A DNA stretch of 64,000 nucleotides, taken from NCBI GenBank assembly GCA_964360785.1, contig CAYHXX010000001.1:138549-202548 (forward strand). Reading direction: 5' to 3'. Position 1 is the stretch's first letter. Each line of letters begins with the position of its first letter. Shown here piece after piece: positions 2,456 through 37,150 of this stretch. This DNA comes from an uncultured Gammaproteobacteria bacterium. Lineage in GTDB: Bacteria > Patescibacteriota > Microgenomatia > Woykebacterales > RBG-16-39-9b. A program made the position numbers and the translations under genes. The notes under the pieces were generated by a model that saw only the letters and a program-made list of their open reading frames with translations, was not told the origin of the DNA and searched no databases.

Positions 2456-2603
2456 GAGTAATAGACTTTTGTAGTGGTAGGTTGCAGGGGAGAAGGTGTG
2501 GACCCACCAGCTGGCGGATCACAAAAAAATTTGTCCCGATATTGGGGCAAATTACTACGTAATTATATCCTATATTTATCAAGAAGTCAATTATTGGGTC
2601 AAA

Positions 2604-3215
2604 TTACCTTGGTGTCATCTCATCCATGGCAAAGCTAACTCCAAAGGCCCAGGAACCATCAGGGCTGTCCGCGTAGCGTGTCATGATTGTTTCTGGCGTG
2701 TGCAATCCTCGATCGATATAATCAAACTTAAGTCCCTTGGCTACAGTTTCAATAGCTTGTGACCAGTCGCGAAACGCAGCTCCTGATTGCGCTCCGGTAT
2801 AAATTGCCCAACCCCAAGCATTGTGTGAGTTTCTGGGAATATTCTTTCCGAGAGTTGATTCTTGAAAAGCAATCGCAGGTAGGAGTCGATAATCAAGCCC
2901 ATATTTGTCAGCAGCAGAGACAAAAACTGTCCCCAACCCAGACATTGGTGAGCGGTGTTTGGCCAGGAAGTTGTCGACGATTACAGGTCGAGTATCTCCC
3001 TTCCCTACAGCTGCGAGAACTTGGGTGTTATTTGAATTTTGCGTGTAGTAGCTATCAATTGGGGAATTTACTAGATTTTTGCTTTCAGTAGTACCTGGTT
3101 GTTTTGAAATTCTAGTTTCGGCTGCACTGGCGTTTTTGAGGACGATGAAGACAAGCAATACAAAACCAACCAAAATAAAGATGAATGCAGAAACAAATAG
3201 CAGGCTTTTAGACAT
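2604..3215 (-). CDS. Secreted or membrane-anchored lysozyme-like protein, tandem paralog of 1883..2455
   Basis: Signal/TM N-terminus MSKSLLFVSAFIFILVGFVLLVFIVL; conserved LLPAIAFQES block shared with the neighbour. Confidence 0.4.
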   Translation of the reverse strand: MSKSLLFVSAFIFILVGFVLLVFIVLKNASAAETRISKQPGTTESKNLVNSPIDSYYTQNSNNTQVLAAVGKGDTRPVIVDNFLAKHRSPMSGLGTVFVSAADKYGLDYRLLPAIAFQESTLGKNIPRNSHNAWGWAIYTGAQSGAAFRDWSQAIETVAKGLKFDYIDRGLHTPETIMTRYADSPDGSWAFGVSFAMDEMTPR

Positions 3216-3400
3216 TCGCCTTCTAATTTAGACTATGTGAAAAACTTTGTCAAAGGAGCTTTCGAGTTTCAAACAGGGTGTTTCTGACCTCACTAGCATC
3301 ACTAATTCTGCCAAAATTTGGTAATTAGCTCCTTATACAGTATAATGTGTGATTGAAAGGAGGTACAGGTAGATTTTATTAATAAATCTACATAATAAAT

Positions 3401-3598
3401 ATGAACGGAACAATTAAAACAAAGACAGAAAAAGGATTTGGGTTTATTTCTCGTGAAGGAGAATCAAAAGATCTTTTTTTCCACTCTAATGATTTAGTCG
3501 ATGTTTCTTTTGACGCACTTGAAGTTGGCGCGGCAGTTACATTTGATGTTGTTGATGGTCAAAAAGGTCCAAGTGCAAAGAATGTAAAACTTGCCTAA
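3401..3598 (+). CDS. cspA: Cold-shock protein, CspA family
   Basis: 65 aa, with RNP motifs KGFGFI and FFHSN; upstream extended -10 box and SD AAAGGAGG. Confidence 0.9.
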   Translation: MNGTIKTKTEKGFGFISREGESKDLFFHSNDLVDVSFDALEVGAAVTFDVVDGQKGPSAKNVKLA

Positions 3599-3617
3599 CC
3601 TTAGTTGACAATACATT

Positions 3618-3651
3618 ACAAAAAGGCCTTGCTTCAAGCAAGGTTTTTTTG
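3618..3651. terminator. Bidirectional rho-independent terminator shared by cspA (+) and a small minus-strand ORF
   Basis: Hairpin CCTTGCT-TCA-AGCAAGG preceded by an A-run and followed by TTTTTTT. Confidence 0.7.
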
Positions 3652-3680
3652 TGCTCATTTACTTAAGAATTTTGGAAACT

Positions 3681-3788
3681 CTATTTAGCCTTTTGGTCTA
3701 GAAATGCTTTTTTAATTGCAAGTCTTTTGGCTGTTTTGTGTGAATGGGTTCTTCGACTTTTACCAACACCAGTTGCTCTTTTTGCCAT
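3681..3788 (-). CDS. Small basic protein (35 aa), possibly ribosomal-protein-like. It is below the 60-aa ORF cutoff.
   Basis: Manual translation gives MAKRATGVGKSRRTHSHKTAKRLAIKKAFLDQKAK, a very basic sequence reminiscent of small r-proteins (L28/L32-like pattern GK..R..SH..TAKR). It is convergent with cspA on the shared terminator. There is a TATAAT box just upstream but no clear SD. Confidence 0.3.
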   Translation of the reverse strand: MAKRATGVGKSRRTHSHKTAKRLAIKKAFLDQKAK

Positions 3789-3823
3789 AGACCGCATTAT
3801 ACACTAATCCGTAAATTTTCAAT

Positions 3824-3856
3824 AAAAAAGGCGGCCATTTGTAAAAATGTACCGCC
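3824..3856 (-). terminator. Rho-independent terminator downstream of the NMO-like gene
   Basis: On the minus strand: GGCGG-N17-CCGCC followed by TTTTTT. Confidence 0.6.
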
Positions 3857-3915
3857 TGCCAAAGTTCTCTCTTGATTTCTCTGTCTAAGTAACCACGGTT
3901 TTGCACGTAAGATCC

Positions 3916-35547: not shown

Positions 35548-36126
35548 ATGTTTGACAAACTCGTTGTTGGCTTTTTTGTTGATGAAGTTGCCGGAGGATT
35601 CTTTGTAGATGTACCTCCAGGACAAATAGCCTGTGTTTACGATCGCCTAAGGGGCGTGCTTCGTCATACTTGGGGACCAGGCTTACATTTCAAACTCCCT
35701 TTTTTACAGAAAGCAAAGCTTTTTAACGCGCAAACTCTTGAGTACAGTATTCGCCCAGGTTTTGAAGCTGAAGTAAACCGCGAATTTCTTGGAGACGATC
35801 CAATCAGCGCCACCACCGCAGACGGTATAGGCATTTCGGTACTAGGAACAATTTTAATTCGTATAAACAAAGACCTTGTTGTTGGACTTTGGGAGAATAT
35901 TGGAGAAGGTTTTGTTTCGAAAATAATTCGCCCAACCTCACGTTCTCGTATTCGTACAGCATTATCAGAATTTACGGTTCAACAACTCAATTCAGCTTCT
36001 CGACACGAAGCCGAAAAGAGAATCAAAGAGCAACTTGAGTTTGAACTTGGGCCAAAAGGTCTGATCGTCGAAGGTGTTCTTCTTTCAGAAATTTCCAATA
36101 CCACACCAGCTCCAACTCACAACTAA
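35548..36126 (+). CDS. SPFH/band-7 (HflK/C-like) domain protein
   Basis: VPPGQIACVYDRLRGV...GPGLHFKLPFLQKA matches the SPFH N-terminal pattern. Confidence 0.55.
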   Translation: MFDKLVVGFFVDEVAGGFFVDVPPGQIACVYDRLRGVLRHTWGPGLHFKLPFLQKAKLFNAQTLEYSIRPGFEAEVNREFLGDDPISATTADGIGISVLGTILIRINKDLVVGLWENIGEGFVSKIIRPTSRSRIRTALSEFTVQQLNSASRHEAEKRIKEQLEFELGPKGLIVEGVLLSEISNTTPAPTHN

Positions 36127-36167
36127 TTGTCCCTTACTACTTGTTCTGATATAATCGGTTCCTACTA

Positions 36168-36242
36168 GCGGGATTCGTATAGTGGCTAGTATGCCACCCT
36201 TCCAAGGTGGAGGCGAGGGTTCGATTCCCTTATCCCGCTCCA
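36168..36242 (+). tRNA. tRNA-Gly(TCC)
   Basis: GCGGGATTCGTATAGTGGCTAGTATGCCACCCTTCCAAGGTGGAGGCGAGGGTTCGATTCCCTTATCCCGCTCCA. Confidence 0.85.
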
Positions 36243-36318
36243 AACTAGGTTCTGAAAATGAAAAGACTTCTCAGTTCCCTGGCATCTAAAATCTTTGTTA
36301 AAACAGAAGAGCGGCCCT

Positions 36319-36861
36319 TTAGGACGCGCTCTGGTCTAATGTCTGCAAATTTAAATAGTTTCTTAGTGAAGCTATAATACTCCTCTCATCTTCGTCAAAA
36401 TCCACACCTTCATCCGAAATCTTGGAGAAAATCCCGTGAGCAGCCCTTATCAGGGAATCAGGATCATCCAAGCTTAAACCTTGTGCCTCTGCTCGCTTCC
36501 TATTTCTCTCCTCTGTGTCCTTGCGCTCCTCTCCTCTCACTCTTTCGTTTTCTTCTCGAATCCAATTCTTTAAGAGCATCAACGTTGCCTCTGTAGCCCG
36601 CATCGCTCCCTTTGCTTTAATTCTCCATTGTTCGTATTCGAGATAATTCATTCTACGACCGTCGGCATGCGTTCTGTTATTACTCCCCAGTTGGTCTTCG
36701 ATCCCTTGCTTTCTGAGTACGCGTTCAGTTCTTCTCTCATATGCTTCTTGCAGGGATTTTGGTGGGACAAAACGGCTTCGCGCGCGCTCTAACCGAGTTG
36801 GTCGAACTGGATCCACGAGGCACCTCCTGGTACCCTGAGCAATGCCCACTCGTTTTGACAC
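36319..36861 (-). CDS. Hypothetical charged protein, GC-rich, between tRNA loci
   Basis: 180 aa, Arg/Glu-rich, no recognisable motif; GC ~50%. Confidence 0.35.
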   Translation of the reverse strand: MSKRVGIAQGTRRCLVDPVRPTRLERARSRFVPPKSLQEAYERRTERVLRKQGIEDQLGSNNRTHADGRRMNYLEYEQWRIKAKGAMRATEATLMLLKNWIREENERVRGEERKDTEERNRKRAEAQGLSLDDPDSLIRAAHGIFSKISDEGVDFDEDERSIIASLRNYLNLQTLDQSAS

Positions 36862-36943
36862 TGCTTCCTTTTATAGTTTCTATTTTAAAGGTAATGTCAA
36901 CTTACTTTAAATTTTAGGTTTATTTTGGTAGAATACGTTCACC

Positions 36944-37005
36944 TGCGCCTGTAGCTCAGTGAAGCAGGTGCTTCGCACCCAACGATATGAATCGCAGAGC
37001 ACTAA
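36944..37005 (+). pseudogene. Degenerate tRNA-like fragment (5' partial copy of tRNA-Arg)
   Basis: GCGCCTGTAGCTCAGTG... resembles the start of the following gene, GCGCCCATGGCTCAGTGG. No complete cloverleaf. Confidence 0.45.
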
Positions 37006-37009
37006 ATAT

Positions 37010-37085
37010 GCGCCCATGGCTCAGTGGATAGAGCGCGTGGCTTCGGACCACGAGGTCGGGGGTTCGAATCCCTCTGGGCGCGCCA
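37010..37085 (+). tRNA. tRNA-Arg(TCG)
   Basis: GCGCCCATGGCTCAGTGGATAGAGCGCGTGGCTTCGGACCACGAGGTCGGGGGTTCGAATCCCTCTGGGCGCGCCA; anticodon loop CTTCGGA. Confidence 0.75.
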
Positions 37086-37093
37086 TTTTGAGT

Positions 37094-37150
37094 TCGGTCC
37101 GCCAGCTGGCGGATTGAGTGCGGAGCACTTGCGTCCCTCCAGGCGCGCCA
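37094..37150 (+). repeat. Palindrome CCGCCAGCTGGCGG plus a partial 3' copy of tRNA-Arg (att-like scar)
   Basis: The sequence tcggtccgccagctggcggattgag is followed by gtccctccaggcgcgcca (against the tRNA 3' end atccctctgggcgcgcca, 14 of 16). Confidence 0.6.

Follow-up and report, generated by a model that had tools for sequence, protein, structure and literature searches.

A repeated GC-rich palindrome at disrupted tRNA genes of a Woykebacteria-like bacterium, a possible short palindromic insertion sequence

We analysed a stretch of 64,000 nucleotides (contig CAYHXX010000001.1, positions 138,549 to 202,548; "the window") in which one GC-rich palindrome, TCCGCCAGCTGGCGGA, recurs beside pieces of tRNA genes. 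The closest homologues of the window's proteins lie in Candidatus Woykebacteria and other Patescibacteria. Its genes are housekeeping (MurT, FemAB, type IV pilus machinery, two-component systems, UvrABC, LexA, Lon and the ATP synthase a subunit), and 14 tRNA genes are spread over the 64 kb, as called by ARAGORN and Rfam. The window is chromosomal DNA of a Woykebacteria-like bacterium of the candidate phyla radiation (CPR; Patescibacteria), and an ENA contig from Hainich groundwater (L206; loci from other genomes are cited here by L numbers) is base-for-base identical to it across the first of the sites described below. A phage origin, prompted by the 14 tRNAs, was rejected, as the genes are housekeeping and there was no near match to phage records.

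The palindrome sits within a 20-mer, GTCCGCCAGCTGGCGGATTG, that has two exact copies in the window, at 10652–10671 and 37097–37116. The perfectly palindromic part measures 16 bp, at 10653–10668 and 37098–37113. A degenerate third copy, GACCCACCAGCTGGCGGATC (2501–2520), differs from the 20-mer by two substitutions and has one mismatch within the 14-mer core. The first-pass annotation, made from the sequence letters, had already pointed out this repeat and judged it unlikely by chance, and both statements hold; it had, however, given the palindrome as 14 bp and placed the first copy one base off, at 10651–10670, with the second placed exactly. In 100 dinucleotide-preserving shuffles of the window, the 14-mer at up to two mismatches had a mean of 0.07 matches, against three in the real sequence, and no shuffle (0/100) contained three; the mean for the 20-mer was 0.00. 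The 64 kb contain six perfect GC-rich hairpins with seven or more base pairs in the stem, two of which are the exact copies of the motif.

The first copy is flanked by an intact tRNA-Gln(ctg) and a 5′ tRNA-Gln fragment, the second by an intact tRNA-Arg(tcg) and a 3′ tRNA-Arg-like fragment (Table 1). The third lies between two paralogous genes on the minus strand, 1883–2455 and 2604–3215 (33% identity, E = 8e-26). The early proposal that the motif marks tRNA-fragment or paralog junctions was thus right for all three copies, and the link to tRNA fragments recurs in other genomes, as described below. The genes around the third copy are indeed paralogs, with a secreted or membrane N-terminus, but neither has a Pfam match, and the label "lysozyme-like" once given to them could not be confirmed.

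Both exact copies are part of a longer unit. On the plus strand the two loci, which are 26 kb apart, share a common plan of palindrome, TTG, a hairpin with a 5-bp stem, and TGC. Each of these cassettes folds into two hairpins, with −19.3 kcal/mol (z = −3.96) for the first and −17.7 kcal/mol for the second. The stems of their second hairpins, GATGC...GCATC and AGTGC...GCACT, are two compensated pairs apart, and a lone hairpin of this second type, GGATGCTTTAGCATTCC, is found downstream of tRNA-Val. The bases bordering the palindrome are ...CCTG/TCCGCC and ...TCGG/TCCGCC on one side, and GGA/TTG on the other. Cassette 1 occupies the D-loop of a disrupted outer tRNA-Gln and is antisense to tRNA transcription; cassette 2 fills the T-loop slot of an outer tRNA-Arg relic, in the spacer between tRNA-Arg and tRNA-His, in sense orientation. 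The opposite orientations with respect to transcription, together with the different loops occupied (D-loop at site 1, T-loop at site 2), argue for a DNA-level copy rather than an RNA signal.

At both sites an intact gene is nested in a disrupted older gene of the same anticodon: tRNA-Gln(ctg) at 10506–10707 (minus strand) and tRNA-Arg(tcg) at 36945–37150 (plus strand). The halves of each older gene still pair mutually, with compensatory differences from the inner gene. Among relatives, L207 and L366 have an undisrupted outer gene, and L367 has the nested arrangement.

Along the minus strand, site 1 consists of a terminator, a promoter-like site, TCCGGGATCGTCTAGCGG, a 38-nt insert (GCA, the hairpin GATGCTTTTAGCATC and CAATCCGCCAGCTGGCGGAC), AGGACAG, TTATTTTTTGT, the intact tRNA-Gln(ctg), GATATAGGTTCG, a 26-nt hairpin insert, CCTAGCCCCGGATCCA and the femAB leader. 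The inner gene, with the acceptor TGCGGGA/TCCCGCA, takes the place of the outer gene's anticodon arm, and the 26-nt insert stands where the outer gene would have its T-loop AAT. The acceptor halves of the outer gene pair at 6/7 positions, with C2:G71 where the inner tRNA has G2:C71. In the relatives L207 and L208 (FemAB 83% identical) a single plain tRNA-Gln(ctg), TCCGGGGTCGTCTAGCGGTAGGACGGTGGGTTCTGGTCCCATCAACCTAGGTTCGAATCCTAGCCCCGGATCCA, is found here, followed by the same 3′ flank. The outer 5′ part in the window matches the start of this intact gene, TCCGGGGTCGTCTAGCGGTAGGAC..., and the outer 3′ end and its flank are identical to those of L207. Because ends and flank match, the outer fragments are the disrupted ortholog of the tRNA-Gln of L207 and L208. 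The promoter-like site, which in L207 reads TTGAGA-17-TAGAAT at the same place, would drive a transcript with cassette 1 as its leader.

Two other accounts of the outer pieces were rejected. A functional outer tRNA with several introns does not fit a gene that has no anticodon arm and no Rfam tRNA match over its outer pieces. Split or permuted tRNA halves joined via the palindrome, in the manner of Nanoarchaeum, do not fit either, as the acceptor halves from one site do not pair with those from the other. At the femAB locus of a further relative, L005, a tRNA-Gln(ttg) (3341–3414) with a C4:C69 mismatch has the T-arm of the window's outer type and the 3′ acceptor end of its inner type, a mixture that suggests recombination between tRNA-Gln alleles in this lineage.

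Site 2 reads, along the plus strand, promoter-like site, outer 5′ fragment, tRNA-Arg(tcg), TTTTGAGTTCG, cassette, outer 3′ part and tRNA-His. The ends of the outer gene, GCGCCTG and CAGGCGC, pair perfectly. In a distant relative, L126 (Lon 67% identical), the Gly, Arg and His genes form a compact cluster directly ahead of lon, and its tRNA-Arg is of the inner type; L366 (Band 7 protein 90% identical) carries an outer-type tRNA-Arg, GCGCCAGTAGCTCAGTGGATTAGAGCAC..., intact and behind the same kind of promoter. In L367 and L368 (86%) the tRNA-Arg is nested as in the window, but the T-loop slot is filled by TTTTGCGATTAGCAAACGCGATTGT, and no match to the palindrome turned up in either locus with as many as 3 mismatches allowed. 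It follows that the nesting came before the palindrome, which is not the cause of the junction. In the best-supported reading it is a passenger of tRNA-fragment junctions, which it neither creates nor regulates.

The surroundings of site 2 differ in composition from the rest of the window. A stretch of 51% GC (36243–38650; about 41% elsewhere) splits the ancestral compact tRNA Gly-Arg-His-lon cluster, as comparison with L126 indicates, and carries two ORFan genes, 36319–36861 and 37423–38325, the second of which encodes a membrane protein matching the phage moron family phrog_944 (E = 4e-12). T-arm-like fragments are present at 38454–38465 and 38558–38573.

The first-pass annotation had suggested that the motif could be the core site of a recombinase. 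On a fuller version of this reading, a site-specific recombinase, either Xer-like or an integrase that targets tRNAs, uses the palindrome for crossover, and the partial tRNAs are products of that recombination. This GC-richer interruption with its phage-like ORFan and the position of the palindrome at tRNA-fragment junctions speak for it, but we consider it very unlikely. No recombinase, integrase or transposase domain was found in about 50 open reading frames (ORFs) of the window (Pfam, with PHROGs for the flanking ORFs), the nested tRNA-Arg of L367 and L368 exists without the motif, and in other genomes the motif is also found in ORFs and in ordinary intergenic DNA. The fragments do resemble those left at the att sites of integrases, being partial tRNA copies, some of them 3′ ends with CCA, beside an intact tRNA. 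They differ in three ways: no island separates them from the intact gene, which is just tens of bases away; they flank it on both sides, so that it is nested; and their D- and T-loops carry hairpin inserts. Pfam and PHROGs scans of the flanking ORFs found no tyrosine or serine recombinase, and the junctions of L367 and L368 show that the motif does not define such junctions. A homing endonuclease beside the tRNAs was likewise looked for in the window and none was detected. An operator for a regulator, another early suggestion, fares no better, since copies in the window are part of transcribed pre-tRNA leaders and spacers, and other genomes carry the motif within coding sequences.

At site 3 a 10-bp hairpin has been kept through two G.U pairs, which form on the transcribed (minus) strand only, so that the predicted RNA fold is −12.9 kcal/mol on this strand and −5.5 kcal/mol on the plus strand. 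In L005 a different small hairpin, GGCTATTTTTAGCC, is found at the same position after a conserved terminator. Such replacements in relatives, here and in the tRNA-Arg T-loop slot of L367 and L368, indicate that hairpins turn over at fixed slots. Exchange of this kind is seen at three places or more, namely site 3 and the slots in the T-loop and the D-loop of the outer tRNA-Arg.

These observations can also be read at the RNA level, and a role of this kind is the main rival, though in our judgement an unlikely one. The hairpin would be a structural element of the pre-tRNA leader (Gln), the spacer (Arg–His) and the site 3 transcript, serving processing, stability or attenuation, with the palindrome as one of several interchangeable sequence solutions. 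Promoter-like sites upstream of the outer fragments do place both exact copies within transcription units. Moreover, the pairing retained at site 3 on the transcribed strand alone, the differently sequenced hairpins that relatives hold at the same slots, and the two compensated pairs between the second hairpins of the cassettes are all as this account would have them. It is harder to reconcile with the inversion of the cassette relative to transcription between the two sites, because of which the two RNAs differ outside the palindrome. A hairpin does not need 20/20 identity, the 16-mer is translated within ORFs of other genomes, and the tRNAs of L207 and L126 are compact and have no such leader. 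Rfam 15 gave no credible family over the motif at E up to 10, and only tRNAs reached the gathering score in the window. Terminator scans did not flag the motif as an intrinsic terminator, and the bases after the hairpin, TTGGATGC and TTGAGTGC, contain no T-run that could give a U-tract.

The two nested genes are part of a wider set of tRNA relics in the window. Directly downstream of 5 of the 14 tRNAs, Gln(ctg), Gln(ttg), Lys(ctt), Val and Arg(tcg), there are 3′ tRNA fragments built to one plan: TTCG, a T-loop insert of 23–38 nt that contains a hairpin, ...GT, the 3′ strand of the T-stem and the 3′ strand of the acceptor. A CCA end is present on 3/5 of them (Gln-ctg, Lys and Arg). Upstream, 5′ fragments are found at Gln(ctg), Arg(tcg), Val, Phe and Gly(gcc).

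Table 1. Positions of the motif-bearing units, the nested tRNA genes and the other tRNA fragments in the window.
Feature	Position	Strand	Description
Cassette copy 1	10652..10689	.	38 nt: GTCCGCCAGCTGGCGGATTG, hairpin GATGCTAAAAGCATC (10672-10686), TGC
Cassette copy 2	37097..37134	.	38 nt: GTCCGCCAGCTGGCGGATTG, hairpin AGTGCGGAGCACT (37117-37129), TGCGT
Degenerate copy (site 3)	2501..2520	-	GATCCGCCAGCTGGTGGGTC on the minus strand; after the terminator of gene 2604-3215, before paralog 1883-2455
Promoter-like site, site 1	10718..10746	-	TTGAGA-17-TAAAAT, TG upstream; just upstream of the outer 5′ fragment
Outer tRNA-Gln(ctg), 5′ part	10690..10707	-	TCCGGGATCGTCTAGCGG, first 18 nt, acceptor strand to D-loop GG
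Inner intact tRNA-Gln(ctg)	10560..10633	-	ARAGORN; Rfam tRNA 55.8 bits
Outer tRNA-Gln, 3′ part	10506..10559	-	GATATAGGTTCG, 26-nt hairpin insert, CCTAGCCCCGGATCCA, then ancestral 3′ flank
Promoter-like site, site 2	36906..36934	+	TTTAAA-17-TAGAAT, TG upstream; upstream of the outer tRNA-Arg 5′ fragment
Outer tRNA-Arg relic, 5′ part	36945..37009	+	GCGCCTG TA GCTC AGTGA, hairpin-bearing insert, GAGCAC
Inner intact tRNA-Arg(tcg)	37010..37085	+	ARAGORN/Rfam; acceptor GCGCCCA/TGGGCGC, same type as L126
Outer tRNA-Arg relic, 3′ part	37135..37150	+	CCCTC CAGGCGC G CCA; 17/18 identical in L367
3′ tRNA fragments	33700-33752, 41250-41304, 25434-25494, 10506-10559, 37086-37150	-, +, -, -, +	
tRNA-Phe leader fragment	24866-24881	-	16/16 nt, then small hairpin GCAAAGCTTGC
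tRNA-Val leader fragment	25600-25674	-	hairpin interrupts D-loop
tRNA-Gly(gcc) leader fragment	8799-8845	-	GCGCGAGT... and hairpin GCTCCGATCTGATCGGAGC; conserved in L005

The palindrome is not confined to the window. A scan of one genome per GTDB species (596 Gb) with the exact 17-mer TCCGCCAGCTGGCGGAT, the core plus T, found it in at least 120 genome stretches; the source genome is not among the matches listed. Among the first 80 matches listed, counted from record titles, 33 (~41%) belong to CPR lineages and 20 (~25%) to Bacteroidota, and most copies among the matches listed lie in DNA of 30–48% GC. Many are nested within longer imperfect hairpins or stand beside other GC-rich palindromes, and loop variants of the form TCCGCC-NNNN-GGCGGA recur within the same loci. 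In Bacteroidota and some CPR genomes (at many loci, for example L050, L054, L099 and L042) and in viral contigs L210 and L224 the palindrome was seen inside a larger recurrent hairpin, a widespread repeat in which it is preceded by ..GATTGC(N)TC and followed by TC..GCAATGAC... A GTAG beside the motif was seen only in the Mucilaginibacter copies of L042.

Long ORFs contain 60 of 138 copies. Where the coding DNA is below 50% GC, 29/37 copies are read in the frame that gives PPAGG, often as N-PPAGG-E/S/Q, in loops of CysRS, MetK, RecJ, GDH, TsaD, Pth, Map and LepA. The TsaD of one carrier (L033), for example, has PRPML-NPPAGG-K where relatives at 68–73% identity have PRPML-RD/RE-K. Other CPR orthologs of TsaD show further short GC-rich peptide inserts at the same loops (TLRQAQGSKL or RLPAGRQG, against none), as well as a 14-residue insert of the LYSYGRVRVAGAKG type. 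Insertions derived from palindromes may be common in the housekeeping proteins of CPR bacteria.

Broken tRNA copies elsewhere carry the palindrome in much the same way as those of the window. In L019 a copy of tRNA-Arg(tct), upstream of an intact one, equals its neighbour up to the T-stem, and its T-loop is broken by GAAA, the palindrome and TTG. In L044 the palindrome replaces 8 nt in a partial tRNA-Lys copy, with the intact gene 95 nt downstream, and in L009 (Bacteroidales) each of the tandem partial tRNA-Cys copies has a TCCGCC-N4-GGCGGA. A second palindrome, CCTGCCTGCCGGCAGGCAGG, also present in more than one phylum, behaves similarly: two partial tRNA-Leu copies upstream of the intact gene in L157 have it in the D-loop, and it is read in frame in Lon as LPAGRQG or MPAGRQG. 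In 683 kb of loci chosen on other grounds it has 6 copies, against an expectation of about 0.003. Its positions are L131 5666, L148 5039, L157 536/626/105/884, L017 136 and L533 517, some of them beside the first palindrome. In L533, a viral contig, it lies in the D-loop of a tRNA-Lys-like 5′ fragment, which is cut in the anticodon loop by a small gene for a GIY-YIG nuclease.

What kind of sequence is found in such places? We put at about 50% the probability that the motif is a short palindromic insertion sequence, similar to repetitive extragenic palindromic (REP) sequences, Rickettsia palindromic elements (RPEs) or GC clusters, that is tolerated in junk DNA or in loops. The palindrome is the first hairpin of a two-hairpin DNA cassette of about 38 nt, which would have been copied into two pieces of junk DNA: the D-loop of a dead tRNA-Gln gene and, in a dead copy of tRNA-Arg, the slot of the T-loop. 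Both dead genes enclose an intact replacement tRNA. More widely, TCCGCCAGCTGGCGGA would belong to a cosmopolitan set of short GC-rich palindromes of AT-rich genomes, especially those of CPR/Patescibacteria and Bacteroidota, with CCTGCCTGCCGGCAGGCAGG as another member. Members of this set would spread at the DNA level, in either orientation, by insertion or replacement at breaks or in existing hairpin loops. They would survive only where they are harmless, that is, in tRNA relics, in intergenic hairpin slots and in surface loops of proteins, where the first palindrome is read as PPAGG. In the window the copies would be co-transcribed in pre-tRNA leaders and spacers, and removed in tRNA processing. 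The exact copies, the make-up and opposite orientations of the cassettes, the intact orthologous tRNAs of relatives, the nesting that lacks the motif, the spread over phyla, the frame bias and the repeated presence in broken tRNA copies were observed directly; what we infer is mobility itself, an inserting enzyme or repair route, and neutrality.

Several results weigh against this proposal. Uniform composition would give about 70 copies of the 17-mer in 596 Gb by our own arithmetic, to be set against the at least 120 stretches found. In viral contigs, 15/56 matches to the motif lie in DNA below 50% GC, compared with 2/91, 0/10 and 3/30 for three composition-matched palindromes, but a fourth control, TGCCGCAGCTGCGGCA, which resembles a run of alanine codons, gave 22/94, so that the controls are mixed. 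No RAYT (Y1 transposase) gene or other candidate enzyme was found among the approximately 50 ORFs scanned in the 64-kb window, and none recurs beside the copies in 120 loci. The source genome contributes two exact copies and one degenerate copy, a count limited to the 64-kb window. At 16–38 nt, the unit is shorter than any characterised mobile element that we know of. Finally, the insertions resemble replacements (+12 nt in TsaD, 8 nt exchanged for 16 in L044), without clean target duplications.

The first two of these points are also those on which an explanation by chance would lean. The matches in other genomes would be GC-rich hairpins that arose by convergence or by chance, terminator tips and structured spacers among them, and the pair in the window would stem from one local gene-conversion or duplication event, with no family of elements behind it. 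The number of matches is indeed of the same order as the uniform-composition expectation, one control palindrome has a similar low-GC share in viral contigs, many matches in GC-rich genomes fall within a conserved ABC-transporter gene, and the first palindrome has no copy in the 683 kb of unselected Lon loci. It is nevertheless quite unlikely, in our view, that chance accounts for a CPR share of about 41% of the matches listed despite the small AT-rich genomes of that group, for the frame bias of 29/37, for loop variants that recur in the same loci, for a D- or T-loop placement in broken tRNA copies that is repeated in unrelated genomes, and for the sixfold occurrence of the second palindrome in those 683 kb. 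As for a gene family travelling with the motif, only ABC transporters recur among the 120 loci, and these are coding-chance copies in GC-rich genomes; the candidate was rejected.

If the motif is a palindromic insertion sequence, the flanks of its copies should bear on how it arrives. Locally duplicated flanks occur at 16/130 sites, against 2.3% of random positions, and direct repeats of at least 6 bp flank 10 sites, where 0.9 are expected; both counts speak for an insertion sequence. Repeats of this kind (6–10 bp around some copies) would be target duplications if the palindrome were an excision footprint, that is, the 8-bp tips TCCGCCAG and CTGGCGGA left by the near-precise excision of a longer insertion sequence or miniature inverted-repeat transposable element (MITE). 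Of the readings that we weighed this seems the least probable. A search of 1.57 Mb of loci for paired half-sites that would bound a longer element as terminal inverted repeats gave only chance pairs in GC-rich coding DNA. Locally periodic sequence surrounds several of the flanking repeats, and the net length change in coding copies is not 16 nt plus a duplication. For a palindromic insertion sequence, the likeness of the insertions to small replacements means that a route by break repair or hairpin exchange fits better than classical transposition.

By analogy, the palindrome resembles REP sequences, RPEs and mitochondrial GC clusters, and falls short of the defining features of each where these were tested. 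Of the three early suggestions (recombinase site, REP-like element, operator), the REP-like one came closest, given the insertion behaviour at the DNA level and the occurrence in many unrelated genomes, but the expected GTAG flank is missing. Like the REP/BIME/REPIN sequences of RAYT (Y1 HUH) systems, the motif is a short GC-rich palindromic hairpin with multiple near-identical non-coding copies, co-transcribed with its neighbours and found in either orientation, and its 16-bp palindrome in a 38-nt unit, folding at −17.7 to −19.3 kcal/mol, corresponds to the imperfect palindrome of 20–40 nt that describes a REP hairpin. REPs, however, have a 5′ GTAG or GTGG tetranucleotide where the window motif is flanked by G and TTG, and they come in hundreds of copies with a cognate RAYT, in contrast to 2–3 copies in 64 kb with no such gene in the ORFs scanned. 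The palindrome is also identical across phyla and is translated in ORFs.

HIP1, GCGATCGC, is the highly iterated palindrome of cyanobacteria, 8 bp long and extremely abundant per genome in this one phylum. It too is a palindrome defined by its sequence, over-represented in coding and non-coding DNA and with no known mobilising enzyme; the palindrome described here is longer (16 bp), apparently of low copy number per genome, and spread over many phyla. A 14-bp perfect palindrome with the HIP1 core, GAGGCGATCGCCTC, is present in the window as a single copy (6525–6538).

RPEs were reportedly described by Ogata et al. in 2000. They are likewise palindromic DNA of selfish appearance that lies in frame in housekeeping genes as tolerated surface peptides, and also in RNA genes and intergenic DNA. 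In-frame copies of our palindrome were found in other genomes and not in the window (29/37 as PPAGG; NPPAGG in TsaD). RPEs differ in being about 100–150 bp long and restricted to Rickettsia, compared with 16–38 nt (16–20 bp shared, or ~5–6 residues) in many phyla. The RPE topic is covered in a review on MITEs (PMC10969869).

Outside bacteria, the closest likeness is to the GC clusters and double-hairpin elements of fungal mitochondria and the repetitive hairpins of sponge mitochondria. These elements (PMC4478555, PMC2800124) are small GC-rich palindromic or double-hairpin units of AT-rich compact genomes, often by or in tRNA and rRNA genes, and have no known insertion mechanism, a further likeness to the palindrome; they differ in being organellar. 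No description of the palindrome, and no bacterial counterpart with an identical sequence across phyla, came out of literature searches by topic and by sequence string.

A broader and more speculative proposal, which we offer tentatively and hold to be on the improbable side, is that an unrecognised and widespread mechanism writes GC-rich palindromes (TCCGCCAGCTGGCGGA, CCTGCCTGCCGGCAGGCAGG and their relatives) into AT-rich bacterial and phage genomes, with a preference for the D- and T-loops of tRNA genes. Each insertion would kill a tRNA gene and would be survived only with an intact copy beside or inside it. Such a mechanism would drive the turnover of tRNA genes, seen as nested or tandem pairs of broken and intact copies, and would add loops of the PPAGG and LPAGRQG type to housekeeping proteins.

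For annotation, the palindromic-insertion reading warns against taking partial tRNA copies of the kind found here for island borders, and GC-rich peptides such as PPAGG in CPR proteins would be read as originating at the DNA level. If the motif is what we propose, AT-rich bacteria, including the CPR/Patescibacteria, would carry ultra-short palindromic insertions comparable to RPEs and GC clusters but extending across phyla. This would account for puzzling short insertions in the housekeeping proteins of CPR bacteria as well as for the abundance of tRNA fragments in these compact genomes, and would point to an unknown mechanism of insertion or repair.

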